A DNA stretch of 64,000 bases from Shigella phage ESh24, in the sequence record ON528734. One strand, 5' to 3'. Both the position numbers and the translations under genes were made by a program. The notes beneath the pieces were generated by a model. That model did no database searches. It was not told the DNA's origin and saw only the letters and a list, made by a program, of their open reading frames with translations. This document shows, one piece after another, positions 2,619 through 64,000 of the stretch. Position 1 is the first letter of the stretch. Each line of letters starts with the position of its first letter.

Positions 2619-2642
2619 AGTCTCCTTCGGGAGACTTTTTTC
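2619..2642 (+). terminator. rho-independent terminator (GTCTCC-UUCG-GGAGAC + T run)
   Basis: Perfect 6-bp stem, UUCG tetraloop, T6 tract. Confidence 0.8.
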
Positions 2643-2651
2643 ATTTTACCG

Positions 2652-2683
2652 GTTTACTTTTCGTTTGAGCCGTGGTACTATAC
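2652..2683 (+). promoter_or_regulatory. T4-type early promoter
   Basis: GTTTAC (2652-2657), 18-nt spacer, TGGTACTATACAA extended -10. Confidence 0.7.
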
Positions 2684-2709
2684 AACCATCGGATAAAGAG
2701 GAGAACATC

Positions 2710-2898
2710 ATGAAAATTGAAGCACTCAATCAAGAAGGAAATATTTACGTCATCATTAATGGTGATTTTTTCGTCGACATGGATGAAGTTACTAGTGAAG
2801 AACTTGTAGAACTTCTTAAGAAACGTTATAATATGTGTGATGAAGTTGCAACTCACATGGCGTGTGCAATATTCTCTCTTTCATATGTGGTGGAATAA
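2710..2898 (+). CDS. hypothetical protein (62 aa)
   Basis: AGAGGAG RBS then ATG at 2710; ORF-track start 2665 lies inside the promoter. Confidence 0.5.
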
Positions 2899-3463: not shown

Positions 3464-3495
3464 GTTTACAAGTTGGCAAGGTTATGGTATAGTAA
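3464..3495 (+). promoter_or_regulatory. T4-type early promoter
   Basis: GTTTAC (3464-3469) and TGGTATAGT -10. Confidence 0.65.
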
Positions 3496-3625
3496 TCTTG
3501 TCAACTGTTAAGGAGAAGAGAATGAAAGTTTTGTTTGTTGTGTATGTAATGATTCAATATAATCACCCAATGTTTACTTATAATCTGGTGAACAACATTA
3601 TTGATATTATTCAAAGGAGTATGTA

Positions 3626-3811
3626 ATGACAAGTGAGCAGGCTTTTAAATTAAGAGAATTAATTGAGACGTATAGTAAAGCTGTTCATACATCAACAATT
3701 ATTGATGAATCAGCTTTCTCCGGACATGCCAACAAGATTAAATACAAAACTCTTATGGAAGAAGCTAAAGTAAATCTTGATTCTTATATTGAAACTTTAA
3801 TTGGTGAATAA
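3626..3811 (+). CDS. hypothetical protein (61 aa)
   Basis: AGGAG RBS; ORF. Confidence 0.5.
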   Translation: MTSEQAFKLRELIETYSKAVHTSTIIDESAFSGHANKIKYKTLMEEAKVNLDSYIETLIGE

Positions 3812-3812
3812 C

Positions 3813-4079
3813 ATGGGCTTTCCTAAATTAGAAGTAGGTGATTTGGTCTTAACAAAATTATGGAATGATGTTCAATCAGTAGAAATCTGTCAATATCGTG
3901 GAGCAACAGGTAATTTGATGTACACGATTTATAATCCAGAAATTTTATTAGAGTGTCATTTGGAACGCTTTATAAAAGACACCGATAGTATGCCGTATAG
4001 TGTATCGATTGTACGTAAATCTGATACAAAGGAATACTCTAAAATTTTAGAACAAATCAGCGCAAATAAAAAGGATTAA
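3813..4079 (+). CDS. hypothetical protein (88 aa)
   Basis: ORF starting MGFPKLEV just after upstream stop. Confidence 0.5.
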   Translation: MGFPKLEVGDLVLTKLWNDVQSVEICQYRGATGNLMYTIYNPEILLECHLERFIKDTDSMPYSVSIVRKSDTKEYSKILEQISANKKD

Positions 4080-4080
4080 T

Positions 4081-4614
4081 ATGAAACGATTAGTATTAGA
4101 AGTTAGTCCACTTTTTGGTGAATTGGCTATAGAAAAAGTAAATAATATGTATCGTTTGACACAAGAAGACGATATGATGTATTTTACACCTAGTGAAATT
4201 ATTCATTTAACCCAAATTGAATATCCTTATACTGATAAAATAATAAGCATCAATGATGAGCACAAAATTCATTTTTATTCTTCATGCCCAGGATTTAATA
4301 TTAAAAGTGAGTCAATGTGTTTATCAGTTATCCATTGGGATAGTTTTATAGCCAAGATTAAATATTTTTATTATTCTAATGAAAGAAAACATAGTTTAAA
4401 ATGGCTCAAAAATTGTAATGCTATTATTACTAACGCTTGCAATCAGAATGATGAAACTCTTTTAAATGTATCAAAATGTTATGAAGAGGGAGATGTCTTA
4501 ACTATTCGTCAAATTGACGATTTTCGATCGCATATTGTCACATTTACCAAAGACGAAGCTATTGCACTAAAAGCTTATCTTGATTCTGTTATTCCAACTA
4601 TGATTTCAAAGTGA
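4081..4614 (+). CDS. hypothetical protein (177 aa), paralog of next gene
   Basis: C-terminal FTKDEAIALKAYLDSVIPTMISK matches LSKSEAEAMIKYLTTVTPSMKG of neighbour. Confidence 0.6.
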   Translation: MKRLVLEVSPLFGELAIEKVNNMYRLTQEDDMMYFTPSEIIHLTQIEYPYTDKIISINDEHKIHFYSSCPGFNIKSESMCLSVIHWDSFIAKIKYFYYSNERKHSLKWLKNCNAIITNACNQNDETLLNVSKCYEEGDVLTIRQIDDFRSHIVTFTKDEAIALKAYLDSVIPTMISK

Positions 4615-4620
4615 GGAAAT

Positions 4621-5142
4621 ATGTTTATTTCAAGTGAAAGTGGTTTAATTCGTGCTGAATTTAAAAATGACATCTTTCTTATTCAAGGAGATGATATTAT
4701 TAAAATGAGTTATGACGAAATCAAGAAAATTTGTCATGCTCTTGAAAGTCATGGAAAAGTGAACGCTGTTATTGATATTGGCGATTTATGGGTGACACTT
4801 TATGAAGTATCCGAAGGATTTAACATTGAAGATGAAAATAACATTTTAGCTATTGATAAAAGAAGTGATTTGTTTGATGTATTAAAAGTTTATGAACAGT
4901 CAAATGGCGGAAGAAAAGCTGTATTGATTTATCAAAAACCGCATTCATGTGGAACTGCTTCAATCATTTCAAATATTGAAGATGAAACTGATACTTATAT
5001 GTGTGTTTTAAAAGCTGGTGGTGACCGTCATCCGGATTTTATTTCTATTCGTCAAAACAATGGAGAAATTTCATTATCAAAATCAGAAGCTGAAGCGATG
5101 ATTAAGTATTTAACAACCGTTACGCCTTCAATGAAAGGATAA
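4621..5142 (+). CDS. hypothetical protein (173 aa), paralog of previous gene
   Basis: Shared C-terminal motif with 4081-4614. Confidence 0.6.
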   Translation: MFISSESGLIRAEFKNDIFLIQGDDIIKMSYDEIKKICHALESHGKVNAVIDIGDLWVTLYEVSEGFNIEDENNILAIDKRSDLFDVLKVYEQSNGGRKAVLIYQKPHSCGTASIISNIEDETDTYMCVLKAGGDRHPDFISIRQNNGEISLSKSEAEAMIKYLTTVTPSMKG

Positions 5143-5144
5143 TT

Positions 5145-5606
5145 ATGATTATTAATGAAAACTCTTGGCACTATAAATTATTCAAATTGTTTAACGATGA
5201 ATGGCAACGACCTAAGACACTATGTGCATACTTTTGGTCTATTGTTATCCCTACATTTTTCGTTTCTATTTTTGGGTGTACTATACTCGTAGGGCTAACA
5301 ATTATTTGTGCAGAAAGCCTACAACGTTGGCTTATTTTCGGTAGTTTATGGACTCTTCTTCCATTAGCATTTATACTTGCGCTTTTGGTTGTTTTACTTA
5401 TTATCGGTTCATTTGTTATTCCTGCACATTTGCGTGAAAAATATAAAGATTATAAATGGAAAAAGGATTATGCTTTACACGTAGAAAATATTGATAGGGC
5501 GTATAAAGGTTTACCTCCTATTCAACCCAAGAAATCTATTATCGTCGAATTTTTAAAAGCTCGTAAAGCTAAAGTATGTCCTGTTATTGAATATAAGGCT
5601 GAATGA
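5145..5606 (+). CDS. predicted integral membrane protein (153 aa)
   Basis: Three hydrophobic segments; ATGA-coupled to downstream NTase gene. Confidence 0.6.
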   Translation: MIINENSWHYKLFKLFNDEWQRPKTLCAYFWSIVIPTFFVSIFGCTILVGLTIICAESLQRWLIFGSLWTLLPLAFILALLVVLLIIGSFVIPAHLREKYKDYKWKKDYALHVENIDRAYKGLPPIQPKKSIIVEFLKARKAKVCPVIEYKAE

Positions 5607-6616: not shown

Positions 6617-6618
6617 TA

Positions 6619-6643
6619 GGGAGCCTTCGGGCTCCCTTTTTTA
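6619..6643 (+). terminator. rho-independent terminator (GGGAGCC-UUCG-GGCTCCC + T run)
   Basis: 7-bp GC stem, UUCG loop, T6 tract. Confidence 0.85.
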
Positions 6644-6666
6644 TTTCAAAAATTTTTCACAAAGTT

Positions 6667-6698
6667 GTTTACAAGCATAAAGCTTTATGGTACTATAC
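6667..6698 (+). promoter_or_regulatory. T4-type early promoter with conserved leader cassette
   Basis: GTTTAC, TGGTACTATACAACTATCAACT core; A-rich upstream element. Confidence 0.75.
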
Positions 6699-6730
6699 AA
6701 CTATCAACTGATACGGATTTGGAGAATAAA

Positions 6731-7699
6731 ATGAAAACTGTAACTATCAATAAGGGTATCTACTTTGGCAAAGAAATCTCTGGAACTTTTGAACTCTTAG
6801 GTGAATGGTTCCCAGATAATGCTCCAGTAGATGCACAAGGAGATGGTAAAGTTTTTGTTGAAATTGACGGTAAACGTCGCGGTGTTTGGGTTTACAAATC
6901 AGACATTTCATATGATGGTGTAAAAGTTGAAGAAGTTAAAGAATCGTATGAAGATATGAAAACCCGCATTAATAAAAGATTTAATGTTATGGGAATGATG
7001 ACGAATGGTATTATTAACGGAAACATTCGTTCATTAATTATCTCTGGTGCGGCGGGTATTGGTAAAACGTATTCTTTAGATAAAGCTTTAAATAAAGCAA
7101 ATGATATTGGATACATTGAATATAAAAGCATTAACGGTAAAATCTCTGGTATCGGTCTTTATGAACAGCTTTGGAATAATCGTGAAGAGAATTCTGTCCT
7201 TTTGATTGATGATGTGGATGTTTTCTCTGATATGGACATTCTTAATCTTCTGAAAGCTGCTCTGGACACCGGAGAGACCCGTAAAGTCTGCTGGAGCACC
7301 GCATCTTCTTACTTAGAAGAAAAAGGCATTGAGCGTGAGTTTGAATTTAAAGGAACGATTGTTTTTATCACAAACGTTGACATTGACCGCGAATTAGACC
7401 GTGGTACTAAACTTGCTCCACATTTACAAGCATTAGTGTCCCGCTCAGTTTATTTGGATTTGGGTGTTCACACTAATGAAGAAATTATGGTCAGGGTTGA
7501 AGATGTTATTCTTTCAACTGACATGATGCAAAAGCGCGGTCTTTCTGATGAAGAAACTTATAAAGCATTATCATGGATGAAAGTCAATGTTAATCGTTTA
7601 CGCAATGTTTCACTGCGTACTGCACTTTATCTTGCTGACTTTATTATGACCGACAAAAATGGTTGGGAAGAAATTGCTGAGGTTACTCTTCTGAAATAA
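6731..7699 (+). CDS. predicted P-loop ATPase (AAA-like), 322 aa; nrdC.10 position
   Basis: Walker A GAAGIGKT, Walker B VLLIDDVD; ORF-track N-extension is leader, real start after GGAG RBS. Confidence 0.7.
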   Translation: MKTVTINKGIYFGKEISGTFELLGEWFPDNAPVDAQGDGKVFVEIDGKRRGVWVYKSDISYDGVKVEEVKESYEDMKTRINKRFNVMGMMTNGIINGNIRSLIISGAAGIGKTYSLDKALNKANDIGYIEYKSINGKISGIGLYEQLWNNREENSVLLIDDVDVFSDMDILNLLKAALDTGETRKVCWSTASSYLEEKGIEREFEFKGTIVFITNVDIDRELDRGTKLAPHLQALVSRSVYLDLGVHTNEEIMVRVEDVILSTDMMQKRGLSDEETYKALSWMKVNVNRLRNVSLRTALYLADFIMTDKNGWEEIAEVTLLK

Positions 7700-7797: not shown

Positions 7798-8103
7798 ATG
7801 ATGTTATACTCAAAGGCTCGTGAAATTTACGAAACTAAAATTAAAGAAGCAGTATTTCAGTTCGCAACAACGATGCGATGGACAAATGATTGGGAATATT
7901 CAAAAAATCATAAGAAGCCCATGGTGACAAGAAAGGCTCATGTGTTAGTGTTAATAGACCGTGAGCAGATTAAAGCCCGAGAAGCCCTCCAGAATCATAA
8001 AAAGGCTGCCTTTGAATGGTTTATGGATAACACTGCTCCTGAGACTAAGAAAGCAGTGAGCGCTTGGTTCAGTGGAAAAAATTGTGAAAGAAGTTTCTTT
8101 TAG
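7798..8103 (+). CDS. hypothetical protein (~101 aa)
   Basis: GGAGG RBS 7791-7795; tandem ATGs at 7798/7801. Confidence 0.5.
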   Translation: MMLYSKAREIYETKIKEAVFQFATTMRWTNDWEYSKNHKKPMVTRKAHVLVLIDREQIKAREALQNHKKAAFEWFMDNTAPETKKAVSAWFSGKNCERSFF

Positions 8104-8105
8104 TT

Positions 8106-8137
8106 GTTTACAAGACAGTTCCTCTGTGGTACTATAC
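8106..8137 (+). promoter_or_regulatory. T4-type early promoter with conserved leader cassette
   Basis: GTTTAC, TGGTACTATACAACTATCAACTAC, GGAGGA RBS. Confidence 0.75.
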
Positions 8138-8163
8138 AACTATCAACTACGGAGGAACAGAAA

Positions 8164-8691
8164 ATGAATGCTAAAGATATTTTCAACTTGGTAAACTACA
8201 ATGATGGTAAATTTAAATCTGAAGCTCAAAGCAAGTTTTTTAATGATGTCTCAATCGGTGGTGAAATCACGGTTGATGGAGGACAAGTTTATAAATCTCG
8301 TTGGAATTGGATCGTTATTATCGATGAGATTGGTATTGTAGAAATTTACAAGAATACGAATAAAAATCGTACATTACACTGGTCTCGTGATACTAACGAA
8401 CAGTACAAAAAGGATAAAGCATCTAAATTATCTCGTGTAACTCAAGAAGATATTGAGTTCATCAAAAAGGATATTTTGATGTATGATAACTTAATTGCTG
8501 AAGAGCAAGCTGTTATTGATAAATTTGACGAGATTAAAGCTTCTCGTGAAATTCCTGATTTTATGAAAGAATCAGTAAATGAACGATACACTCTCATTTC
8601 AGAGCGTATTGAAACTTACAAAAAGCAAAGAGCTGAACGCCAGAACACTCTTCGGAAATTTGAAGAACGGTTAAAGACGGTACTCGCATAA
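8164..8691 (+). CDS. hypothetical protein (175 aa)
   Basis: Start after conserved leader; C-terminal charged helical region. Confidence 0.6.
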   Translation: MNAKDIFNLVNYNDGKFKSEAQSKFFNDVSIGGEITVDGGQVYKSRWNWIVIIDEIGIVEIYKNTNKNRTLHWSRDTNEQYKKDKASKLSRVTQEDIEFIKKDILMYDNLIAEEQAVIDKFDEIKASREIPDFMKESVNERYTLISERIETYKKQRAERQNTLRKFEERLKTVLA

Positions 8692-11079: not shown

Positions 11080-11110
11080 TTTACTTTGCCACAAGGATGT
11101 GGTATAATGT
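11079..11110 (+). promoter_or_regulatory. T4-type early promoter (GTTTACTTTGCCACAAGGATGTGGTATAAT)
   Basis: Near-identical 30-mer also at 55657-55686. Confidence 0.75.
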
Positions 11111-15570: not shown

Positions 15571-17384
15571 CAATTGAAAAAGAAATTGAAGGATTGATTC
15601 ATAAAACTAATAAAGACCTTTTGAACGAGAATGCTAATAAAGATTCTCGTGTTTTTCCAACTCAACGGGACCTTATGGCTGGTATTGTGTCTAAACACAT
15701 TGCCAAAAATATGGTCCCGTCTTTTATTATGAAAGCGCATGAAAGCGGAATTATTCATTTCCATGATATTGATTATTCCCCTGCTCTTCCATTTACTAAT
15801 TGTTGTTTAGTAGATTTAAAAGGAATGCTTGAAAACGGATTTAAGCTTGGTAATGCACAGATTGAAACTCCTAAATCAATTGGAGTTGCTACTGCAATTA
15901 TGGCACAAATTACTGCGCAAGTTGCTTCTCACCAATACGGCGGAACGACCTTTGCGAATGTAGATAAAGTACTTTCTCCTTATGTTAAACGCACCTATGC
16001 AAAACATATTGAGGATGCAGAAAAATGGCAAATCGCCGATGCGTTGAATTATGCTCAATCTAAAACAGAAAAAGATGTATACGATGCATTCCAAGCTTAT
16101 GAATATGAAGTAAATACTCTCTTTAGTTCAAACGGACAGACTCCTTTTGTAACAATTACATTTGGTACGGGAACTGACTGGACTGAACGAATGATTCAGA
16201 AAGCAATTCTGAAAAATCGTATTAAAGGTCTTGGTCGTGATGGGATAACTCCTATTTTCCCTAAGCTTGTTATGTTCGTCGAAGAAGGTGTTAATCTTTA
16301 TAAAGACGATCCGAACTATGATATTAAGCAACTTGCTCTAGAGTGCGCAAGTAAAAGAATGTATCCTGATATTATTTCAGCTAAGAACAATAAAGCTATC
16401 ACTGGCTCATCTATTCCTGTTTCTCCAATGGGTTGTCGTAGTTTCTTGAGCATATGGAAAGATTCGACTGGTAATGAAATTCTTGATGGACGTAATAATC
16501 TTGGCGTTGTAACACTGAATCTTCCTCGTATCGCATTAGATTCTTATATTGGAACACAGTTCAATGAACAGAAATTTACTGAATTATTCAATGAACGAAT
16601 GGATTTATGTTTTGAAGCTTTGATGCGTAGAATTAGTTCCTTAAAAGGAGTTAAAGCTACTGTTGCTCCTATTCTTTACCAAGAAGGTGCATTCGGGGTT
16701 CGTCTTAAACCTGACGACGACATAATTGAGTTATTTAAAAACGGTAGAAGTTCAGTGTCTTTAGGATACATTGGTATTCACGAATTGAATATTCTTGCCG
16801 GTCGTGATATTGGACGAGAAATTTTAACTAAAATGAATGCTCGTCTTAAACAGTGGACTGAAAGAACTGGATTTGCTTTTAGTTTATATTCGACTCCTGC
16901 TGAAAACCTTTGTTATCGCTTCTGTAAACTTGATACTGAAAAATATGGAAGTGTAAAGGATGTTACCGATAAAGGCTGGTACACTAATAGTTTCCATGTT
17001 TCAGTAGAAGAAAATATTACTCCGTTTGAAAAGATTTCTCGTGAAGCGCCATATCATTTCATTGCGACAGGTGGTCACATTTCTTATGTTGAACTTCCTG
17101 ATATGAAAAATAACTTAAAGGGTCTTGAGGCTGTCTGGGATTATGCTGTGCAGCATTTAGATTATTTTGGTGTTAACATGCCAGTAGATAAGTGTTTTAC
17201 ATGCGGAAGTACCCATGAAATGACTCCTACTGAAAGCGGATTTGTTTGTTCTATTTGTGGAGAAAGTGATCCTAAAAAGATGAACACAATAAGAAGAACA
17301 TGTGGTTATTTGGGAAATCCGAACGAGCGCGGATTTAATCTTGGCAAAAATAAAGAAATCATGCATAGGGTTAAACACCAATGA
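15567..17384 (+). CDS. nrdD: anaerobic ribonucleoside-triphosphate reductase, intron-less
   Basis: 605 aa uninterrupted; glycyl-radical motif RRTCGYLG and C-terminal CFTCG...CSICG zinc site. Confidence 0.95.
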   Translation: MTIEKEIEGLIHKTNKDLLNENANKDSRVFPTQRDLMAGIVSKHIAKNMVPSFIMKAHESGIIHFHDIDYSPALPFTNCCLVDLKGMLENGFKLGNAQIETPKSIGVATAIMAQITAQVASHQYGGTTFANVDKVLSPYVKRTYAKHIEDAEKWQIADALNYAQSKTEKDVYDAFQAYEYEVNTLFSSNGQTPFVTITFGTGTDWTERMIQKAILKNRIKGLGRDGITPIFPKLVMFVEEGVNLYKDDPNYDIKQLALECASKRMYPDIISAKNNKAITGSSIPVSPMGCRSFLSIWKDSTGNEILDGRNNLGVVTLNLPRIALDSYIGTQFNEQKFTELFNERMDLCFEALMRRISSLKGVKATVAPILYQEGAFGVRLKPDDDIIELFKNGRSSVSLGYIGIHELNILAGRDIGREILTKMNARLKQWTERTGFAFSLYSTPAENLCYRFCKLDTEKYGSVKDVTDKGWYTNSFHVSVEENITPFEKISREAPYHFIATGGHISYVELPDMKNNLKGLEAVWDYAVQHLDYFGVNMPVDKCFTCGSTHEMTPTESGFVCSICGESDPKKMNTIRRTCGYLGNPNERGFNLGKNKEIMHRVKHQ

Positions 17385-17851
17385 ATTATGACAGAATATA
17401 CCCGTGCTGCTTTGTGAATGGCCCTGGATGCAGGACTGTTCTTTTCGTTACAGGTTGTTTGCATAAATGCGAAGGGTGTTATAATAAATCAACATGGAAT
17501 GCTAGAAATGGTATTCCATTCACTGGTGAAACACTAGAGCAATTAATTGAATGTTTGAATAATGATTATATAGAAGGATTAACTATAACTGGAGGAGACC
17601 CTCTCTATCCTGATAATCGAGATGTTATTCATTGCATTGTTCAAACAGTAAAAAATCTTTATCCCAATAAAAGCATTTGGTTGTGGACAGGATATAAATT
17701 TGAAGATATTAAACAACTAGAAATGCTTAAATATGTTGATGTTATTATTGATGGGAAGTATGAGAAAAATCTTCCGACTAAAAAGCTGTGGCGAGGATCA
17801 GATAATCAGCGACTTTGGTCAAATACCGATGGGGTGTGGAAACATGATTAA
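17381..17851 (+). CDS. nrdG: anaerobic RNR activating enzyme (radical SAM)
   Basis: 156 aa; CLHKCEGCYN radical-SAM Cys cluster; ATGA overlap with nrdD. Confidence 0.92.
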   Translation: MNYDRIYPCCFVNGPGCRTVLFVTGCLHKCEGCYNKSTWNARNGIPFTGETLEQLIECLNNDYIEGLTITGGDPLYPDNRDVIHCIVQTVKNLYPNKSIWLWTGYKFEDIKQLEMLKYVDVIIDGKYEKNLPTKKLWRGSDNQRLWSNTDGVWKHD

Positions 17852-21570: not shown

Positions 21571-21617
21571 GCTTTATAAATTTTTGGTAAAATAAACCAA
21601 AACAAAGAGGATATTAA

Positions 21618-22820
21618 ATGAAAGTATGTATTTTTATGGCTCGAGGTCTTGAAGGTTGTGGTGTAACAAAATTCTCACTCGAGCAACGTGATTGGTTTAT
21701 TAAAAATGGTCATGAAGTAACTTTGGTTTATGCTAAAGATAAATCATTTACTCGTAATTGTGCGCATGATTATAAGTCATTTTCAATTCCGGTTTTATTG
21801 GCAAAAGAATATGATAAAACACTTAAGCTGGTAAATGATTGTGATATTCTAATTATCAATTCAGTTCCTGCTACTTCGGTTGAAGAAGACACTATTAATA
21901 ACTATAAAAAAATTATTGATAACATTAAACCTTCTGTTCGTGTTGTAGTTTATCAGCATGACCATTCTTCTCTTTCTTTGCGCCGAAATTTGGGATTAGA
22001 AGAAACTGTTCGTCGAGCTGATGTTATTTTTAGCCATTCTGATAATGGTGATTTTAATAAAGTTCTGATGAAAGAATGGTATCCAGAAACTGTTTCTCTG
22101 TTTGATGATATTGAAGAAGCACCGACCGTATACAACTTTCAGCCTCCGATGGATATTGCTAAGGTTCGGTCAACCTACTGGAAAGATGTTTCTGAAATTA
22201 ACATGAATATTAACCGTTGGATTGGTCGTACGACTACATGGAAAGGTTTTTATCAGATGTTTGATTTTCACGAAAAACATCTTAAACCTGCAGGACTAAG
22301 TACTATTATGGAAGGTCTGGAACGTTCTCCAGCGTTCATTCCTATTAAAGAAAAAGGAATTCCATACGAGTATTATCGTCTTCATCAAGTAGACCAAATT
22401 AAAATTGCTCCTAATTTGCCAACGCAAATTCTTGACCGTTATGTAAATAGCGAAATGCTTGAACGCATGAGTAAATCCGGTTTTGGTTATCAGCTGAGTA
22501 AATTAGATAAAAAATATCTACAACGTTCTTTAGAATATACTCATCTCGAGCTTGGTGCATGTGGAACAATTCCGGTATTTTGGAAATCTACTGGCGAAAA
22601 TTTAAAATTCCGTGTTGATAATACTCCTTTGACCTCGCATGATAGCGGTATCATTTGGTTTGATGAAAATGACATGGAATCAACATTTGAACGTATTAAA
22701 GAACTGTCATCTGACCGAACTCTTTATGACCGCGAACGCGAAAAAGCTTATGAATTTTTGTATCAGCATCAAGATTCAAGCTTCTGCTTTAAAGAACAGT
22801 TTGACATTATTACAAAATAA
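21618..22820 (+). CDS. a-gt: DNA alpha-glucosyltransferase
   Basis: 400 aa; position between 55 and 47; matches T4 AGT N-terminus MKVCIFMARGLEGCGVTKFSLEQ. Confidence 0.9.
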   Translation: MKVCIFMARGLEGCGVTKFSLEQRDWFIKNGHEVTLVYAKDKSFTRNCAHDYKSFSIPVLLAKEYDKTLKLVNDCDILIINSVPATSVEEDTINNYKKIIDNIKPSVRVVVYQHDHSSLSLRRNLGLEETVRRADVIFSHSDNGDFNKVLMKEWYPETVSLFDDIEEAPTVYNFQPPMDIAKVRSTYWKDVSEINMNINRWIGRTTTWKGFYQMFDFHEKHLKPAGLSTIMEGLERSPAFIPIKEKGIPYEYYRLHQVDQIKIAPNLPTQILDRYVNSEMLERMSKSGFGYQLSKLDKKYLQRSLEYTHLELGACGTIPVFWKSTGENLKFRVDNTPLTSHDSGIIWFDENDMESTFERIKELSSDRTLYDREREKAYEFLYQHQDSSFCFKEQFDIITK

Positions 22821-26395: not shown

Positions 26396-26785
26396 ATGAC
26401 TAAAATTACCGTGAATTATACTGTTGATGTAAAAGATATTCAGCCAAAACACGTGCGTTCTGAATCAAATCCACAAAACCAAAATAAAATTCGTCGAGCA
26501 TGGGTTTTGTCTCTTTCTGATAACGCAATGGAAGTTATTCAGAACAAAATTAAATCTGCACCTGCTCGTCATGCGTATTATGAAGCTATCGATCGTGAAG
26601 TAAGTAATAAATGGATTGAACTAATGCGCAAACATACTACAGAATCCCTAAACGCTGGTGCTAAATTTATTATGACTTCATGCGGTGAACGTCTTGAAGA
26701 TGATTATTGCGGTAATGCAGATGAACGTCTAATTGTTGCTGCTCAAATTGTTGCGGAAACAATTGTGGCCGAGTTTAATAAATGA
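26396..26785 (+). CDS. rpbA: RNA polymerase binding protein RpbA
   Basis: 129 aa; position between 46 and 45. Confidence 0.8.
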
Positions 26786-27670
26786 ATTTAGTATATCTTA
26801 TTAGCTTTCCAGAGCGGGAAGCTAAAAATATTTTTCCGTGTTATTATATAGGTTCAAAAATTAACGCAATTTTCGATGGAACAAATATAATTGATTCAGC
26901 TGGAAAGATTTATACTGGAAGCGTGTCATCGAGTTATAGTGATGAATATTTTGAGCTTATTAAAACCACTAAATATACCGTCAAAATTTTAGCTGAAACT
27001 ATATTAGATCCAAGAAAATTGGAAAGATTTTTTTCAATTAAAAGTTAAAGCAAAAAGCAATATAAAATATTTTAATAAAGCATACGCAGATGAAAATACT
27101 TTAATTGGCGCTAAAGGATATGGAACATATAAAAATGTTTTAACTGGAAAAATTGTAAAGCTTTCGCAATCTGAAATTACGCCCGATTATGTTGGTATTC
27201 GTAAAGGTTACAAACATAGTTCTGACGTAAAATATAAAATATCTAATTCAATGAAGAATCACTGGACCGATGAGAAAAAGCTTAAACTTTCAAATAAGAT
27301 GAAATTGAAATATCTTGATTGTAGTTATGCTAAAAAGTTTAGTGATATAATGAATTCAGAAAGTGTAAGATCAAAAATTTCTAAATCTCAAAAAGAGTTA
27401 TGGAATAATGCTGAAAGAAGACAGAGAGCTTCAATTCAAGCAACTGTTAGAAATAATTTACCGGAATTCAAATCAAAATTTAGAAAATCTAAAGCTAGAG
27501 GAACTTGGATTGAACATGAAGATGAATTAAAAACTTTATGGCATGCTTACGGAAAACCGAGTTATAATAAATTTCGTAAAATTGCAGTAGCTAATGGGTT
27601 TAACGACGAATCTTATCAGGGTGCTGTACGGTCCTGGTCTAACTATTATGTAAATAGGAAATTGAAATGA
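26782..27670 (+). pseudogene. seg-like GIY-YIG homing endonuclease gene split by a +1 frame change (parts 26782-27048 and 27008-27670)
   Basis: N part VYLIS...YYIGS (GIY-YIG-like); downstream frame has three NUMOD3-like repeats (GYKHSSDVKYKIS, TDEKKLKLSNKMK, SESVRSKISKSQKELW); frames meet at T7 run 27028-27034. Confidence 0.5.
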
Positions 27671-33109: not shown

Positions 33110-33190
33110 ATACAAGTAATATAAATCTATACTTAGGAAAAATAGATGATTCTGGACCCTTTGGATTCATTAAAAATTTTTCACAAAACT

Positions 33191-33222
33191 GTTTACATCC
33201 CTGTTCTTCCATGGTACTATAC
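33191..33222 (+). promoter_or_regulatory. T4-type early promoter with conserved leader cassette
   Basis: TTTTCACAAAACTGTTTACA...TGGTACTATACAACTATCAACTACTGATACAGATTTGGAGAATGAAATG. Confidence 0.75.
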
Positions 33223-33257
33223 AACTATCAACTACTGATACAGATTTGGAGAATGAA

Positions 33258-33638
33258 ATGAAAATCACTATTTTGGTTATTGCATTAGGTCTTACTGGTT
33301 GTGTAGCTCAAGGACCGGTAGTAAATCAGTCTGATGTAGGAAAAATTGTAAATTGTTCAAGTAAATTTTATAATCCTAATGTCAAGTGTTATAAAGAAGC
33401 TCCAAAGCAAACAGTAGAACAAATGCAGGCGAATTTTGACGAAGCTATTCGTCCAGATGAATCTGCTCAAGCATATCGTAATTCGGATGTAATTACACGC
33501 GAAGAAAAAATTGAAAACTACTGCGCCGAGCTTTGGGCTAATTGGGCTAATAATTACCAATGGCGTACTGGTAAAAATGCTCCGATGGAGTATGTAGTGA
33601 ATTCTTATAATTCATGTGTAAAAAATTTGACTAAGTGA
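33258..33638 (+). CDS. predicted lipoprotein (126 aa)
   Basis: Signal peptide with lipobox LTGC. Confidence 0.6.
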   Translation: MKITILVIALGLTGCVAQGPVVNQSDVGKIVNCSSKFYNPNVKCYKEAPKQTVEQMQANFDEAIRPDESAQAYRNSDVITREEKIENYCAELWANWANNYQWRTGKNAPMEYVVNSYNSCVKNLTK

Positions 33639-34050: not shown

Positions 34051-34791
34051 ATGATTAGTGACTCTATGACAGTTGAAGAAATCCGTCTTCATTTAGGGCT
34101 TGCATTAAAAGAAAAAGATTTCGTAGTTGATAAAACTGGTGTTAAAACTATTGAAATTATTGGCGCATCATTTGTAGCAGATGAACCGTTTATTTTTGGC
34201 GCTCTTAATGATGAATACATTCAGCGTGAACTTGAATGGTATAAATCTAAGAGTTTGTTTGTTAAAGATATTCCAGGTGAAACACCAAAGATTTGGCAGC
34301 AGGTAGCATCTTCTAAAGGTGAAATTAACTCGAATTATGGTTGGGCTATCTGGTCAGAAGATAACTATGCTCAATATGACATGTGTTTAGCTGAACTTGG
34401 TCAAAATCCTGATTCTCGACGTGGTATCATGATTTATACTCGTCCATCCATGCAATTTGACTACAATAAAGATGGTATGTCAGATTTCATGTGTACTAAT
34501 ACAGTACAGTACCTGATTCGTGATAAGAAAGTCAATGCAGTAGTAAGCATGCGCTCAAATGACGTGGTCTTCGGATTCCGTAATGATTATGCATGGCAAA
34601 AATACGTATTAGATAAATTAGTATCTGATTTGAATGCAGGCGATTCAACTCGTCAGTATAAAGCAGGTTCTATTATATGGAATGTCGGAAGTCTTCATGT
34701 ATATTCTCGTCATTTTTACTTGGTTGATCATTGGTGGAATACTGGCGAAACTCATATTGTGAAAAAAGACTATAAAGGTGAGTGGAAATGA
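34051..34791 (+). CDS. 42: dCMP hydroxymethylase gp42
   Basis: 246 aa; thymidylate-synthase-like; matches T4 gp42. Confidence 0.93.
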   Translation: MISDSMTVEEIRLHLGLALKEKDFVVDKTGVKTIEIIGASFVADEPFIFGALNDEYIQRELEWYKSKSLFVKDIPGETPKIWQQVASSKGEINSNYGWAIWSEDNYAQYDMCLAELGQNPDSRRGIMIYTRPSMQFDYNKDGMSDFMCTNTVQYLIRDKKVNAVVSMRSNDVVFGFRNDYAWQKYVLDKLVSDLNAGDSTRQYKAGSIIWNVGSLHVYSRHFYLVDHWWNTGETHIVKKDYKGEWK

Positions 34792-35630: not shown

Positions 35631-35707
35631 TGCCTAAATTTATTGTGTTATAATTACTCTATCTTTAACCAGTGAGGAAAATATAATGATGCCTATGGAA
35701 AAAATGA

Positions 35708-38663: not shown

Positions 38664-38694
38664 TTTACAAGCTGACAAGACTATGGTATAGTAG
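38663..38694 (+). promoter_or_regulatory. T4-type early promoter
   Basis: ATTTACAAGCTGACAAGACTATGGTATAGT. Confidence 0.65.
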
Positions 38695-38721
38695 TCTTGT
38701 TGGTTAAATGAGGAGATTGTT

Positions 38722-38904
38722 ATGGAATTGGTAAAGGTAGTTTTTATGGGGTGGTTTAAGAATGAAAGCATGTTTACTAAAGAAATCACAATGATGAAAG
38801 ATGACGTTCAATGGGCTACTACTCAATATGCTGAAGTTAATAAAGCATTAGTTAAAGCTTTCATTGATGACAAGAAAGTATGTGAAGTAGATTGCCGAGG
38901 ATAA
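38722..38904 (+). CDS. dmd: Dmd antitoxin (inhibitor of host RnlA/LsoA)
   Basis: 60 aa; position immediately after 41 as in T4. Confidence 0.85.
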   Translation: MELVKVVFMGWFKNESMFTKEITMMKDDVQWATTQYAEVNKALVKAFIDDKKVCEVDCRG

Positions 38905-39163: not shown

Positions 39164-39223
39164 CTATTTACTTTTGTTGGAAATTGAGATACTATATAAA
39201 CATAAACTACTGAGGAGATTATC

Positions 39224-39517
39224 ATGAAAAAATTTATCTTTGCCACAATTTTTGCTTTAGCTTCTTGTGCTGCTCAGCCTGCTATGGCAGGTTATGATAA
39301 AGATTTGTGCGAATGGTCTATGACTGCTGATCAGACTGAGGTTGAAACTCAAATTGAAGCAGATATTATGAATATCGTTGAGCGCGATCGCCCTGAAATG
39401 AAAGCTGAAGTGCAAAAACAGCTTAAGTCTGGTGGTGTAATGCAGTATAATTATGTTCTGTATTGCGATAAAAACTTTAATAATAAAAATATCATCGCTG
39501 AAGTGGTAGGTGAGTAA
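39224..39517 (+). CDS. sp: spackle periplasmic protein
   Basis: 97 aa with signal peptide MKKFIFATIFALASCAAQPAMA. Confidence 0.8.
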   Translation: MKKFIFATIFALASCAAQPAMAGYDKDLCEWSMTADQTEVETQIEADIMNIVERDRPEMKAEVQKQLKSGGVMQYNYVLYCDKNFNNKNIIAEVVGE

Positions 39518-41281: not shown

Positions 41282-41316
41282 ATGTCCTCCTTTAAATTAA
41301 TATTTATCATAAATTT

Positions 41317-41348
41317 GTTTACTTTCTCAGCTTGTTATGGTATTATAA
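41317..41348 (+). promoter_or_regulatory. T4-type early promoter upstream of nuclease-like ORF
   Basis: GTTTAC (41317-41322) and TGGTATTAT -10. Confidence 0.65.
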
Positions 41349-41371
41349 AATAAATTGCTGAGGATGATATA

Positions 41372-42711
<1,340 letters not shown>

Positions 42712-43290: not shown

Positions 43291-43330
43291 CAGCTCGTCT
43301 TAAAAGCCGCGAGAATTTATTATAAATAAT

Positions 43331-45750: not shown

Positions 45751-45782
45751 GTTTACTTTCCTTTCTAACGATGATATGATAG
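45751..45782 (+). promoter_or_regulatory. T4-type early promoter
   Basis: AAAAAGTTGTTTAC...GATATGAT. Confidence 0.65.
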
Positions 45783-52145: not shown

Positions 52146-52175
52146 AGTTTAAAATTTTTTCATAAAACTATATAC

Positions 52176-52218
52176 ATCAGTAGTTGATTATGGTACTATA
52201 TCAATATCAACTACTGAT
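52176..52218 (+). repeat. 13-bp perfect inverted repeat (ATCAGTAGTTGAT / ATCAACTACTGAT) flanking a -10-like TGGTACTATA
   Basis: Arms 52176-52188 and 52206-52218, 17-nt spacer. Confidence 0.8.
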
Positions 52219-52317
52219 ATAGAAAACAACTTGGAGAATAAAATGGATAATTCGTTAAAGGTGCTGATACTCTTCTGAAACGCATCGCTCCAATGTTCAA
52301 TTAATGAGGAAATTGTA

Positions 52318-59341: not shown

Positions 59342-59899
59342 ATGCAGAAAACAAATCCGGGTTTGCAGAGACTATTTCAGATTCCGACATTTACCCTATC
59401 GAACAGTGACTTGACTAGTGAAATGAAGGTCAAAATTGCTGATACAGCAAGATACTCTTTAAAACAAAATCCAAATCAGGATAAGGCAGAAGTTATCGAA
59501 AGATGCCGTATCGCTGTGTACGCAGAGTTTTTTGTGGCAGATTGGCTAAGCGGATATGTCAATAAAGGCCAAGAAGATGTCGATGATCCGTACACATATG
59601 CATGGGATGTTTTAGCACATCCAAAATACTGTGGGCTCCGTGTAGAAGTTAAGACACATCAAACTGACTCGCGTTGGATTTCGGTAACAACGGGATGCAG
59701 CGGAGAGTATCCATATGGTTCTGGAATAAATCTAGGGCCCATTCTAAATCATCAAGTCGCTGACTGTATAATTATATTCAACACTAAAGAAATTCATCCA
59801 GGTGTCATCCAGTACACTCCGAAGTTCATCGGTGATAGAGAAGACCTTCGTAAGGTTGTAAGAAAAAGCAACTACAACGGATGGTATCTTTCCATTTAA
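59342..59899 (+). CDS. denB: endonuclease IV DenB
   Basis: 185 aa; position after rIIB as in T4. Confidence 0.8.
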   Translation: MQKTNPGLQRLFQIPTFTLSNSDLTSEMKVKIADTARYSLKQNPNQDKAEVIERCRIAVYAEFFVADWLSGYVNKGQEDVDDPYTYAWDVLAHPKYCGLRVEVKTHQTDSRWISVTTGCSGEYPYGSGINLGPILNHQVADCIIIFNTKEIHPGVIQYTPKFIGDREDLRKVVRKSNYNGWYLSI

Positions 59900-59915
59900 A
59901 AAATTTCACAAAACG

Positions 59916-59947
59916 GTTTACATACCACAAGGACCGTGGTACTATAC
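59916..59947 (+). promoter_or_regulatory. T4-type early promoter with conserved leader cassette
   Basis: GTTTACATACCACAAGGACCGTGGTACTATACAATTATCAACTACGGAGGAGCGGAAAATG. Confidence 0.75.
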
Positions 59948-59973
59948 AATTATCAACTACGGAGGAGCGGAAA

Positions 59974-60237
59974 ATGAAATTTAAATTTTATTACGCTAAA
60001 CATAAAATAACTGATGAATTCGTGTCAGTTGAATATTCTAGCGATGATGAAGGTATGATTTATACTCGCTTAGGATTATCGCATTGGGAGTCTGATACGC
60101 CTTATTTTTCAACTCCCGAAGAAATTACACGCTTAGTTAATGGTCATATGAATGACCACTGGGATGTAATTCTTTCAGATAGTCTTAAAGCGGCTATTAA
60201 TAGTAATGAAATGAAAATTGCTGAGATTGAACTATGA
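59974..60237 (+). CDS. hypothetical protein (87 aa)
   Basis: Start after conserved leader. Confidence 0.5.
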   Translation: MKFKFYYAKHKITDEFVSVEYSSDDEGMIYTRLGLSHWESDTPYFSTPEEITRLVNGHMNDHWDVILSDSLKAAINSNEMKIAEIEL

Positions 60238-60421
60238 GTTCATTATGGTGGTGTTTTGTTTGGTTAATTAGTATTCCAGTAATTTGTTTAACATTTACTT
60301 TTGTGATGAGGTTATTATGAAAATTATGAATTCTGTACTTATTGCTTGCGCGTGGTGGGTTGCACAGGTTTCAGCGGTAGTAGTTGGTATTCACATTTAT
60401 TACGAATATTTTTAAAAAGCT

Positions 60422-60453
60422 GTTTACAAGACTGTTCTTCCGTGGTACTATTA
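60422..60453 (+). promoter_or_regulatory. T4-type early promoter with conserved leader cassette (variant)
   Basis: GTTTACAAGACTGTTCTTCCGTGGTACTATTACCCTATCAACTACGGAGGAACAGAAAATG. Confidence 0.7.
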
Positions 60454-60479
60454 CCCTATCAACTACGGAGGAACAGAAA

Positions 60480-60593
60480 ATGAAAAAGATTATTAAAGCT
60501 ATATGGAATGTAGTTATAATACTAATAGTTTTGAGTATATTCCCAATCGTTTTAATGATTGATGTATTAAACGCTTACTTTGGATTTATGTGA
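60480..60593 (+). CDS. small membrane peptide (37 aa)
   Basis: Hydrophobic; start after conserved leader. Confidence 0.4.
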   Translation: MKKIIKAIWNVVIILIVLSIFPIVLMIDVLNAYFGFM

Positions 60594-63514: not shown

Positions 63515-63543
63515 AGGGAGAGCCTCGGCTCTCCCTTTTTTAT
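63515..63543 (+). terminator. rho-independent terminator (GGGAGAGCC-UCG-GCTCTCCC + T run)
   Basis: 9-bp stem then T6. Confidence 0.85.
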
Positions 63544-63566
63544 TTTAAAATTTTTTTCACAAAACG

Positions 63567-63598
63567 GTTTACAACCAAAGCATACTGTGGTACTATAC
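63567..63598 (+). promoter_or_regulatory. T4-type early promoter with conserved leader cassette
   Basis: TTTTTCACAAAACGGTTTACA...TGGTACTATACAACTATCAACTACTGATACAGAATTACGGAG. Confidence 0.75.
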
Positions 63599-63637
63599 AA
63601 CTATCAACTACTGATACAGAATTACGGAGATTAGAAA

Positions 63638-64000
63638 ATGTCTAAAGTAACTTACATCATCAAAGCTTCTAACGATGTTCTGAATGAAAAAACTGCTGCG
63701 ATTTTAATTACTATTGCTAAGAAAGATTTCATTACAGCCGCAGAAGTTCGTGAGGTGCATCCAGATTTAGGTAACGCAGTAGTTAATAGTAATATTGGGG
63801 TGTTGATTAAAAAAGGCCTGGTGGAGAAATCTGGTGATGGATTAATCATTACTGGTGAAGCTCAGGATATTATTTCAAATGCAGCAACTTTATATGCACA
63901 AGAAAATGCTCCGGAACTGCTGAAAAAACGAGCAACTCGTAAAGCTCGCGAGATTACTTCCGATATGGAAGAAGATAAAGACTTCATGTTAAAACTTTTA
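63638..64000 (+). CDS. motA: middle-transcription activator MotA (3' end outside window)
   Basis: N-terminus MSKVTYIIKASNDVLNEKTAAILITIAKKDF matches T4 MotA; ORF runs off window. Confidence 0.9.
   Translation, partial: MSKVTYIIKASNDVLNEKTAAILITIAKKDFITAAEVREVHPDLGNAVVNSNIGVLIKKGLVEKSGDGLIITGEAQDIISNAATLYAQENAPELLKKRATRKAREITSDMEEDKDFMLKLL

Follow-up and report, generated by a model that had tools for sequence, protein, structure and literature searches.

The window analysed here, a 64,000-nt stretch of Shigella phage ESh24 (ON528734), belongs to a T4-type coliphage of the genus Tequatrovirus that is ~96–98% identical to many isolates in genome comparison, and its early-gene strand is the + strand. 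An earlier note on this DNA had described a cassette recurring in at least seven copies, and this family is real: all eight copies listed there were recovered in place, and an additional weak copy was found at 39166–39226. The eight are named here by the first position of their −10 elements (2676, 6691, 8130, 33215, 52194, 59940, 60446 and 63591). A 24-nt core, TGGTACTATACAACTATCAACTAC, has six matches at three mismatches or fewer (6688, 8127, 33212, 52191, 59937 and 63588), compared to 0.00 expected from 100 shuffles, and a scan allowing five mismatches adds 2674, 60444 and the weak 39188. De novo repeat grouping of the window clustered seven copies, including those at 2648 and 60418. In order, each copy has an UP element rich in A/T, GTTTAC as −35, an 18-nt spacer whose last bases are TGG, TACTAT as −10 and a predicted +1 A, followed by a short unstructured leader, GGAG and ATG; a Shine-Dalgarno and start codon lie at the 3' end of all eight. 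The parts of the focal copy and the remaining members are as follows.

6618..6643, + strand: intrinsic terminator of the focal copy, identified by terminator scan (hairpin 6618–6637; 8-bp GC-rich stem, UUCG loop, T-run)
6646..6666, + strand: A/T-rich, UP-element-like region of the focal copy, with TTTTCACAAA at 6654–6663; recurs in the alignment
6667..6672, + strand: −35 of the focal copy, GTTTAC; this motif is the minus_35_signal of a paralogous T4 cassette in GenBank L13089
6688..6696, + strand: extended −10 of the focal copy, TGG + TACTAT, identical in 8/8 copies; TACTAT is the minus_10_signal in L13089
6703..6730, + strand: predicted leader of the focal copy, from the +1 A (ATCAACTG...) to the base before the ATG
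6721..6733, + strand: Shine-Dalgarno and putative RegB/S1 site of the focal copy, GGAGAATAAAA, overlapping the ATG (6731–6733) of the nrdC.10 homologue (phrog_1250)
2619..2712, + strand: degenerate copy upstream of the mobD.5 homologue (UUCG terminator 2619–2636, −35 2652–2657, −10 2676–2681, ATG 2710); T4 ortholog found
8085..8166, + strand: type A copy upstream of the nrdC.8 homologue (−35 8106–8111, −10 8130–8135, ATG 8164)
33170..33260, + strand: type B copy upstream of the imm.1 homologue, phrog_1754 (−35 33191–33196, −10 33215–33220, ATG 33258)
39166..39226, + strand: weak extra copy upstream of the sp homologue (ATTTAC-N18-TACTAT, ATAAACATAAACTAC, TGAGGAG, ATG 39224)
52150..52245, + strand: degenerate type B copy between motB and cef (−10 52194–52199, ATG 52243)
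59895..59976, + strand: type A copy downstream of denB (−35 59916–59921, −10 59940–59945, ATG 59974 of an 87-aa ORF, phrog_2390)
60401..60482, + strand: type A copy upstream of the ndd.4 homologue (−35 60422–60427, −10 60446–60451, discriminator TACCCT, ATG 60480)
63515..63640, + strand: type B copy upstream of motA (terminator 63515–63536 with CUCG loop, −35 63567–63572, −10 63591–63596, GGAGATTAGAA, ATG 63638)

The A/T tract upstream of the −35 is evident in the family alignment, with TTTTCACAAA present in copies 6691, 33215, 59940 and 63591 and replaced by the variant TTTTCATAAA in 52194. The ORF downstream of 52194 is an 11-codon remnant. The alignment also reveals an internal ACTAT/ACTAT/ACTAC repetition in the 24-mer block, and a discriminator that varies in two copies (60446 and 52194).

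Early promoters of T4 have been described as UP/−35/TGn/−10 promoters with "additional regions of consensus", located 5' to early genes and unknown ORFs (Hinton 2010, PMC2988021). The family displays the features of this class: an UP element, a GTTTAC −35, TGn, a −10, correct spacing, and placement in front of a gene on the early-gene strand. The −35 and −10 are labelled in the paralogous T4 cassette of GenBank L13089, and promoter activity is taken from the literature. The pattern GTTTAC-N16-19-TANNAT matches the window 18 times where 1.19 matches are expected (15-fold over chance), with 17 of the 18 on the + strand. A generic sigma-70 scan was undiscriminating (85 sites versus 82–89 expected); the T4-specific pattern alone is informative. 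The eight copies are a subfamily among the roughly twenty early promoters of the window. Transcription is predicted to begin at the A of ATCAAC, ~7 nt past the −10; the +1 of the focal copy was placed by this 7-nt distance, and our literature search found no genome-wide start-site paper for T4.

Conservation does not stop at the promoter hexamers. As the earlier note had held, the multiple alignment of the copies shows it continuing beyond the −35 and −10: mean pairwise identity is 1.00 across TGG and the −10, 0.65 from −6 to −1 and 0.84 from +1 to +9 (ATCAACTAC), the last rising to 0.94 when the degenerate 2676 copy is left out. The 12 other early promoters of the window average 0.36 from −6 to −1 and 0.29 from +1 to +9. 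The family's spacer is at background level (0.37), and a background-level spacer between near-identical flanks argues against simple recent copying as the sole cause of the resemblance. In RB69, which belongs to a different genus, early promoters repeat CTATCAA around +1, with the imm.1 promoter reading TACTAT CTTTCTATCAACTAC; this recurrence suggests selection on the start region. Early-promoter logos published for relatives likewise prefer C at −3 to −1.

Two leader types follow the start region. Type A, ..CAACTAC-GGAGGAACAGAAAATG, occurs in copies 8130, 59940 and 60446, and type B, ..CAACTAC-TGATACAGATTTGGAGAATAAAATG, in 33215, 52194 and 63591, with a 3-nt-shorter form in 6691. The fixed GGAG-to-ATG spacing claimed for the cassette holds inside each of the two types, but not across the whole family. 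A RegB-type GGAG context had also been suggested for the leader. The RegB/S1 target is GGA(G/U) with an A-rich tail, GGAGRAYARAA, which in T4 is GGAGAAUAAAA (Durand et al. 2006, PMC1702504). Read against this consensus, copies 6691 and 52194 fit exactly, the focal site GGAGAATAAAA matching GGAGAAUAAAA; 33215 (GGAGAATGAAA) has one mismatch to GGAGAAUAAAA, 63591 (GGAGATTAGAA) has one to GGAGRAYARAA, and the type A leader (GGAGGAACAGA) fits less well. Cleavage itself is known from the literature: among T4 substrates tested, motA RNA was good and nrdC.8 "moderately cleaved", and no specific sequence is required 5' of the GGAG (PMC1702504). The suggestion is supported for the GGAG and A-rich part and, like that of a recombination substrate, had been published before; since RegB needs nothing 5' of the GGAG, it does not account for ATCAACTAC. 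Positions +5 to +9 (ACTAC) and TGATACAG are accounted for by no known signal. A sigma-dependent promoter-proximal pause at the repeated ACTAT/ACTAC hexamers was considered from the sequence and set aside; AACTAT overlaps the predicted start, and AACTAC lacks the critical final T.

Three copies were said to follow a GC-rich UUCG terminator, and three hairpins were indeed found (2619–2636, 6618–6637 and 63515–63536), so that three of the eight family copies have an upstream terminator; only the first two loops are UUCG, the third being CUCG. Stems also occur within the spacer (CCAC..GTGG in 59940, ATAAAG/CTTTAT in 6691) or straddle the −10 (8130, 60446 and 52194), and in copy 33215 no clear stem-loop adjoins or overlaps the promoter.

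This arrangement has been described before. PeSL (promoter-early stem-loop) cassettes were reported for T4 and PST with the consensus TTTACW-N17-TAYWAT (Comeau, Arbiol and Krisch 2014, PMC4122927) and in T4-like phages by Arbiol et al. 2010 (PMC2839356). Here TTTACA/TTTACT-N17-TACTAT is found in seven of the eight copies (52194 has TATACA), which fits the published T4/PST consensus and supports the earlier description of a PeSL-like terminator-promoter-leader cassette. The repeats are a T4 early-promoter subfamily with ribosome-binding leaders, previously published as PeSL; the identification is correct and the finding ordinary. T4 itself (NC_000866) has cassettes upstream of mobD.5, nrdC.10, nrdC.8, imm.1, the remnant ORF upstream of cef, ndd.6, ndd.4 and motA. 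The cassette was matched in 568 GenBank phage records, at 6–9 places per genome; an exact 23-mer scan of IMG/VR returned only 12 stretches from 5 contigs.

In the published PeSL model, neighbouring cassettes recombine to form mini-circles. Candidates for such an event in the window are the pair 59940/60446, separated by 506 bp, and the pair 6691/8130, separated by 1439 bp; the ndd.4/.5 locus, where an exchange has been described (Fig. 6A of PMC4122927), also lies within the window. Comparison across genomes shows joints inside the core and exchange between copies. Downstream of denB, 8 genomes combine a single promoter half with leader A, B or B' (a 3-nt-shorter B) and with three different downstream sequences, five combinations in all, and other genomes show a recombination joint where CAACTAC ends. 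In L012 the nrdC.10 promoter half carries a foreign leader, the joint lying inside ACTATCAA. An extra gene upstream of motA has the same leader in two phages, but its spacer is of the nrdC.10 type in one of them and of the motA type in the other. Distant cassettes also exchange: in VIPECOOM03 the derived TATTAT and TA(C/T)CCT are common to the nrdC.8 and ndd.4 cassettes, and in L014 ndd.4 has an nrdC.8-type core. Indel boundaries fall within the core at 59958–59971 and 63588–63610.

The idea that the cassettes are a recombination substrate is supported in part by these joints in other genomes, but the indel enrichment appears only against a random-position null: six of 29 events touch cassettes versus ~1.9 expected under that null. 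If events are instead allowed to fall at any gene junction, our own arithmetic puts about one-third of them at the 20 junctions that bear a promoter, leaving no enrichment. One of the six events (52243) is an intragenic deletion beside an ATG and not a cassette crossover. Most indels of the window are gains or losses of homing endonucleases or introns.

Taken together, the cassettes are very probably immediate-early sigma-70 promoters joined to ribosome-binding leaders, kept near-identical through selection and through recombination or gene conversion, and shuffled in the modular PeSL manner. Unmodified host sigma-70 RNA polymerase would read them as immediate-early promoters, insulated where a hairpin terminator is present from transcription arriving from upstream. 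The combination of UP element, GTTTAC, TGn-extended TACTAT and the CTA(+1)TCAA start region would give very strong initiation, and the unstructured, G-poor leader would keep the Shine-Dalgarno open. GGAG with its A-rich tail would act both as ribosome-binding site and as RegB/S1 cleavage site, shutting off the early mRNAs after a few minutes. The copies would be near-identical because these signals are under selection and because the copies exchange by homologous recombination or gene conversion, in relative weights that we infer; the same recombination would join one promoter half to differing leaders and genes in different phages.

An alternative account, in which the −15 to +9 block is kept solely as the best possible promoter and cassette recombination is incidental and evolutionarily unimportant, is unlikely but has some points in its favour: the RB69 recurrence of CTATCAA, the published C preference at −3 to −1, and the lack of indel enrichment over general gene junctions. 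Against it, 12 other early promoters in the window do without the block (29–36% identity at −6 to +9), several of these 12 have a better −10 (TATAAT) than TACTAT, and the mosaic combinations and derived states common to distant cassettes show that exchange occurs. It is less probable again that the block binds a phage or host protein controlling a subset of promoters, such as an early shut-off factor or one mediating the response to Alt ADP-ribosylated polymerase. A fixed 24-mer with internal repetition would suit such a site, published work calls the mechanism of early-promoter shut-off unknown, and the stimulation by Alt is limited to certain early promoters and traced to no one position (PMC2988021); yet the block occurs in only ~8 of 20 early promoters whereas shut-off is general, and the discriminator varies in 60446 and 52194.

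A shared RNA regulatory structure in the leader is not supported by folding. The own-promoter leaders of the eight copies are no more stable than shuffled sequence (MFE 0 to −4.7 kcal/mol, z −0.41 to +1.08; focal leader −2.6 kcal/mol, z −0.41, unstructured), and are predicted to be single-stranded, as the RegB/S1 site requires; an Rfam scan of the whole window gave 0 matches at gathering thresholds. Type B leaders do contain a small potential hairpin, AUCA-ACUAC-UGAU, but it has only 4 bp and is absent from the 6691 form, and two interchangeable leader modules serve one promoter and even one gene, so a structured cis-regulatory RNA common to the downstream genes (riboswitch-like, an attenuator or a protein-binding hairpin) is very improbable. 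Pairing of UP element TTTTTCACAAA with ATTTGGAGAAT in type B was seen in folds and rejected as not significant versus shuffles (6691, 0.08; 33215, 0.115); copy 52194 reaches 0.04 in the upstream-shuffle test, with a fold that includes its spacer:leader helix as well. A small mobile element, MITE-like or borne by homing endonucleases, is scarcely credible as the source of the repeats. Near-identical dispersed copies, some adjoining variable genes, might suggest one, but they occupy orthologous positions in T4 and hundreds of relatives, all lie on the early-gene strand before a start codon, show no terminal inverted repeats or target duplications in the sequences read, and are located away from the window's homing-endonuclease indels.

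One possibility would add to the early-promoter explanation without replacing it: in a subset of cassettes the promoter may be enclosed in an RNA hairpin by which the ribosome-binding site is masked, an idea we regard as open to considerable doubt. Read-through RNA would contain the spacer, which would pair with the Shine-Dalgarno region and block translation; transcripts from the cassette's own promoter, without the 5' arm, would be translatable, and the gene would be made only while early promoters fire. Spacers pair better with their own leader than with others (−8.99 versus −6.04 kcal/mol; p<5e-5 by permutation), with z≤−2.9 reached by 8 of 20, and RB69 replicates this preference (−8.22 versus −5.92, p=0.0004). 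In the nrdC.8 copy (8130) the spacer plus GTGGT pairs with ACTAC plus GGAGGAAC, the ndd.4 copy (60446) has a spacer:Shine-Dalgarno duplex of −18.0 kcal/mol (z −5.25), and in 52194 spacer ATCAGTAGTTGAT is the exact reverse complement of leader ATCAACTACTGAT (−18.1 kcal/mol, z −7.55). The type A helix, of 13–15 bp and ~−20 kcal/mol, covers GGAGG and is 96.7% paired in 12 variants, with three internal variable pairs held by wobble. At the motB.2 promoter the helix is kept in three lineages with compensatory changes at three consecutive pairs, counted on an alignment anchored at CCTC/GAGG, as MAFFT misaligned the 5' arm between lineages. Predicted Shine-Dalgarno accessibility falls from 0.84–0.92 to 0.00–0.02 for 8130, 60446, 41341 and 50501, and from 0.77 to 0.00 for 45775. 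A review of T4 translational control lists late-promoter examples only (Uzan and Miller 2010, PMC3014915).

Several observations weigh against this idea. Composition-matched shuffled upstream sequence is already predicted to leave the Shine-Dalgarno largely paired (mean 0.34), the observed mean of 0.27 was reached by 9 of 200 replicates, and only 8130, 60446, 45775 and 52194 are individually significant against upstream shuffles. A general sequestration in read-through RNA, which at first appeared significant (Wilcoxon p=0.0012), proved under upstream shuffling to be mostly a composition effect, because U-rich upstream tracts pair with the purine-rich Shine-Dalgarno, and was kept for the subset only. 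In four promoters the inverted repeat pairs with +1 to +12 instead of the Shine-Dalgarno, type B copies depend on weak U-rich:purine pairing, and a double compensatory change is absent from the type A alignment. The inverted repeats could instead be the PeSL "stem-loop overlapping the −10" (attenuators or DNA structures), and upstream terminators limit read-through in three family copies. Spacer:ribosome-binding-site pairing in some early promoters, with the compensatory changes at motB.2, may be a new side result. More tentatively still, the type A cassettes of nrdC.8 and ndd.4 and the modB and motB.2 promoters could be built into such a hairpin, so that read-through RNA would be silent and the promoters' own transcripts would be translated and then destroyed by RegB; if so, hairpin and RegB would together limit the synthesis of these proteins, among them toxic ones such as ModB, to the opening minutes of infection.

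The cassettes matter in two ways: they switch on the earliest phage genes, seconds after infection, and they are seams for the exchange of small accessory genes among T4-type phages, many of these genes probably being concerned with host defences. Because both roles are already established, the present finding mainly confirms that a sequence-only reading can recover them. Its additions are modest: a signal-by-signal dissection, further joints and exchanges between distant copies, a caution on indel enrichment and a testable hairpin idea.

Compared to the T4 early-promoter consensus (Wilkens and Rueger 1994; Miller et al. 2003; via Hinton 2010, PMC2988021, and Nolan et al. 2006, PMC1524935), the subfamily is alike in UP element, GTTTAC, TGn, −10 and location, and differs in its non-consensus −10 TACTAT, fixed discriminator and initial transcribed sequence. 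Like known RegB/S1 sites, it has GGAG and then an A-rich 7-mer where early genes have their Shine-Dalgarno, in RNA that is single-stranded; cleavage here is predicted from the letters, and RegB covers only the final 11 nt of the cassette, leaving ATCAACTAC(TGATACAG) outside that system. In nrdC.8, ndd.4, modB and motB.2, as in T4 e, soc, 49 and I-TevI (PMC3014915), the 5' arm of a Shine-Dalgarno-covering helix lies upstream of the gene's own start. The helix here is known from predicted pairing, and the internal promoter is early sigma-70 where theirs is late, so the timing logic would be reversed; an early-promoter version of this principle is absent from the T4 reviews examined. Lambdoid morons and integron gene cassettes are similar in that single genes travel with a promoter and terminator and a short common sequence marks the insertion, but here there is no integrase or attC-type site, and exchange is thought to proceed via the phage's general homologous recombination over ~25–90 bp of shared promoter sequence. 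With PeSL cassettes the family has in common the order of A/T-rich region, sigma-70-type early promoter, stem-loop, Shine-Dalgarno and ATG, the fit to the T4/PST consensus and exchange joints within the cassette, and probably also a location in variable regions beside small genes of unknown function. In PST and T4 the PeSL stem-loops are marked just upstream of the promoter, an arrangement matched here by the upstream terminator in only 3/8 copies; in RB49 and phi1 they are described within the spacer or straddling the −10, and the same classes are seen in other copies here. Nothing essential differs, and the eight copies form a tighter subfamily, with an identical 24-mer, within the PeSL/early-promoter set.

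The repeated unit lies far above chance: its core 24-mer, TGGTACTATACAACTATCAACTAC, has six matches in the window at three or fewer mismatches and none in 100 shuffles, and a repeat finder with a looser scan adds copies at 2674 and 60444 and a weak ninth copy at 39188, upstream of sp. The copy coordinates in the earlier note were all correct. The T4-style pattern GTTTAC-N16-19-TANNAT was found 18 times against 1.19 expected, with 17 of the 18 on the + strand, which carries the early genes. Copies, named here by their -10 position, have either a type A leader (..CAACTAC-GGAGGAACAGAAAATG) or a type B leader (..CAACTAC-TGATACAGATTTGGAGAATAAAATG), the latter in a three-base-shorter form at 6691. 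UUCG hairpin terminators had been reported before three copies; all three terminators are present, but the loop of the last is CUCG.

Hairpin terminators before three copies
2619-2636: terminator before copy 2676
6618-6637: terminator before copy 6691
63515-63536: terminator before copy 63591, CUCG loop

T4 has orthologous cassettes upstream of mobD.5 (2676), nrdC.10 (6691), nrdC.8 (8130), imm.1 (33215), the remnant ORF before cef (52194), ndd.6, ndd.4 (60446) and motA (63591), weakly at sp, and an additional weak one at denV. An 88-nt cassette query matched 568 phage records, with six to nine cassette places per genome among the matches listed. Virtually all of the records are T4-type coliphages or related phages of Shigella, Yersinia and Salmonella. 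In the GenBank T4 entry L13089, another paralogous copy is annotated with GTTTACA as its -35 and TACTAT as its -10 signal. T4 early promoters have been reviewed as UP/-35/TGn/-10 plus additional regions of consensus (PMC2988021), and preferences near the start are lineage-specific according to the review literature. The PeSL (promoter-early stem-loop) concept and mini-circle experiments are from Arbiol et al. 2010 (PMC2839356); Comeau, Arbiol and Krisch 2014 (PMC4122927) described such cassettes in the T4/PST pair, in the order AT-rich tract, early promoter TTTACW-N17-TAYWAT, stem-loop, Shine-Dalgarno (SD), ATG, and proposed that flanking genes are shuffled via recombination between PeSLs, with the ndd.4/.5 locus as example. 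Because the same cassettes occur in T4 and have been published as PeSLs, the label "PeSL-like" was right and the cassettes were already known; the interpretation as regulatory leader or recombination substrate is supported, both parts having been published before. The cassettes are very probably early promoters of the T4 kind, each with a ribosome-binding leader sensitive to RegB. Their similarity is probably maintained by selection on promoter and leader signals plus exchange between copies, and they act as occasional recombination joints. They do mostly flank unknown genes: of seven downstream proteins tested, six have no known function, the exception being motA.

The window's first 25 kb and the 3 kb around copy 6691 are ~96-98% identical to several hundred Tequatrovirus (T4-type coliphage) genomes, and the window aligns to T4 (NC_000866) from ~60.9 kb down via rIIA/rIIB to ~163 kb, near motA. 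Relative to T4 it lacks the nrdD intron with I-TevII, mobC, mobB, segF and the mobA/60.1 insertion splitting gene 39/60, and the place of mobD is occupied by different DNA (window sites, mobD included: 16102-16105, 17381-17400, 21602-21627, 43290-43321, 55257-55322 and 4639-5602). T4 in turn lacks window segments 3637-4083, 26779-27656, 41308-41845, 53136-53508 and 34773-35720, which are insertions of ~370-880 bp, with the beta-gt/segA region replaced as well; the insertion at 41308 begins within the UP region of early promoter 41341. A second repeat family, the GC-rich hairpins GGGCTTCGGCCC with UUCG loops (19445, 22820, 28356, 30303, 53771, 59047 and 59282), consists of terminator-like stem-loops dispersed between early genes. 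Copy 59940, downstream of denB, contains CCACAAGGACCGTGG, which is related to sequence at 11087-11104 and 55665-55682.

For the conservation profile, 20 convincing + strand early promoters were collected, each with a -35, 18-nt spacer, -10, SD and ATG; eight belong to the family.

Mean pairwise identity, family (8) versus the other 12 promoters
TGG plus -10: 1.00 versus 0.77
-35: 0.92 versus 0.95
+1..+9 (ATCAACTAC): 0.84 (0.94 without 2676) versus 0.29
-6..-1: 0.65 versus 0.36
Spacer: 0.37 versus 0.35

The condition that would have refuted the earlier note, conservation limited to the -35/-10 hexamers, is thus not borne out, since identity outside them is high in the family (+1..+9, 0.84 versus 0.29). 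The -15..+9 block is a subfamily signature, with +1 inferred from spacing. CTATCAA recurs around the inferred starts of early promoters in RB69, which belongs to a different genus, so at least -2..+5 seems to be a conserved feature of the start site rather than a simple copy. The RB69 imm.1 promoter reads TACTAT CTTTCTATCAACTAC, with TACTAT ... CTATCAACTAC the same as in the T4 family; several RB69 early promoters start with AGTCCTATC.

The target of the T4 RegB/S1 nuclease is a single-stranded 11-mer, GGAGAAUAAAA (general form GGAGRAYARAA), with no specific sequence required 5' of GGAG; in T4, motA is a good substrate and nrdC.8 one with moderate cleavage (Durand et al. 2006, PMC1702504). The exact 11-mer is present in type B leaders 6691 and 52194, and 33215 and motA are one position off. 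Judged by sequence match, the suggested RegB-type context accounts for the 3' part of the leader, but ACTAC (+5..+9) and TGATACAG lie outside what published leader signals explain. A shared RNA structure is unsupported, because all eight leaders, folded from the inferred +1, are unstructured (MFE 0 to -4.7 kcal/mol, z -0.41 to +1.08) and an Rfam scan of the window gave no matches. An unstructured leader would suit ribosome binding as well as RegB.

Joints do occur inside cassettes. Relative to T4, a 241-bp insertion in the window starts exactly after CAACTAC of copy 59940. The denB-motA region was compared in eight genomes (the window, T4 and six further phages): at the denB-downstream locus the promoter half is the same in all, the leader is A, B or short B, and what follows is the 87-aa phrog_2390 gene, a gene unrelated to it or, in T4, only 8 codons left over from the phrog_2390 gene, giving five leader/downstream combinations. 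The T4 remnant, mini-ORF MKIAEIEL before ndd.6 (T4 167019-166993), is C-terminal; the gene is intact in the window (59974-60237), and what T4 has deleted reaches from around the cassette ATG as far as an internal AATGAAATGAAAAT. Upstream of motA, an extra gene has one leader, with an nrdC.10-type spacer in phage VIPECOOM03 versus a motA-type spacer in phage 107, the promoter/leader joint lying inside ACAACTATCAA; in a metagenomic contig the nrdC.10 promoter half is joined to a foreign leader, also inside ACAACTATCAA. The nrdC.8 and ndd.4 cassettes of VIPECOOM03, >100 kb apart, both have the derived -10 TATTAT and discriminator TA(C/T)CCT, and in another genome the ndd.4 cassette carries an nrdC.8-type core (record positions 1392-1414).

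VIPECOOM03 cassettes with common derived changes, in two sequence records
~49880-49905
1627-1690

Such derived states common to distant cassettes indicate gene conversion between copies, and together with the joints support the PeSL model. A caveat concerns how often indels fall in cassettes. Among 29 indel/replacement events versus T4 and VIPECOOM03, six have a boundary inside a cassette of an early promoter (~2 expected at random positions), but under a gene-junction null about one third would hit one of the 20 junctions that bear a promoter, and on this null the enrichment disappears. An intragenic deletion next to an ATG (52243) accounts for one of the six, and homing-endonuclease genes and an intron make up most of the window's indels. 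The 52194 cassette ATG opens only an 11-codon ORF (52243-52278), a remnant of an 89-aa gene (phrog_3720) that lies between motB and cef in VIPECOOM03; the same remnant seems to be carried by T4.

Across the 20 promoters the spacer pairs better with its own leader (-8.99 kcal/mol) than with other leaders (-6.04; permutation p<5e-5), with z<=-2.9 in eight, and 13 RB69 promoters likewise favour their own leader (p=0.0004). In the promoters listed below, strong pairing of the 15-nt spacer with the leader of the same promoter (z -3 to -7.5) forms an inverted repeat straddling the -10, a feature that RB69 has too.

Inverted-repeat promoters (+ strand) and spacer partner
3465-3522: 3488, +1..+12
38663-38722: 38687, +1..+12
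41317-41372: 41341, SD
50477-50534: 50501 (motB.2), SD; also RB69 record ~7373-7440 and further records, positions 325-406
51582-51657: 51606, +1..+12
52170-52245: 52194, +1..+12
8106-8166: 8130, SD
60422-60482: 60446, SD

The type A helix has 13-15 bp (~-20 kcal/mol), and its extended -10 GUGGU pairs with the conserved ACUAC; among 12 variants 96.7% of cells are paired, three internal variable pairs are altered on one side only with wobble pairing kept, and no double compensatory change was found. The motB.2 helix is kept in three lineages, three successive pairs showing compensatory changes (G.U/U-A/A-U, G-C/G-C/U-A and U-A/G-C/G-C). In promoter 45775 (45775-45809), before the ADP-ribosyltransferase gene modB, it is the -10 region that pairs, in a 14-bp hairpin of -10/discriminator with SD/ATG; SD accessibility is predicted at 0.77 for the own-promoter transcript and 0.00 for read-through RNA.

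Such helices would mask the ribosome-binding site on read-through RNA, leaving own-promoter transcripts free. As a general claim this is weakened by a control: when the upstream sequence is shuffled at equal composition, SD accessibility is already predicted to fall to 0.34, and a mean as low as the observed 0.27 came up in 9 of 200 replicates. Individual significance is limited to 8130, 60446, 45775 and 52194. The inverted repeats can also be placed in the PeSL class "stem-loop overlapping the -10" of Arbiol et al. 2010 (PMC2839356). Given the shuffle control and this alternative, translational gating is a testable possibility for a subset of promoters. Masking of the ribosome-binding site is known for T4 e, soc, 49 and I-TevI (PMC3014915); the principle would be the same, but their promoters are late, whereas those here are early.
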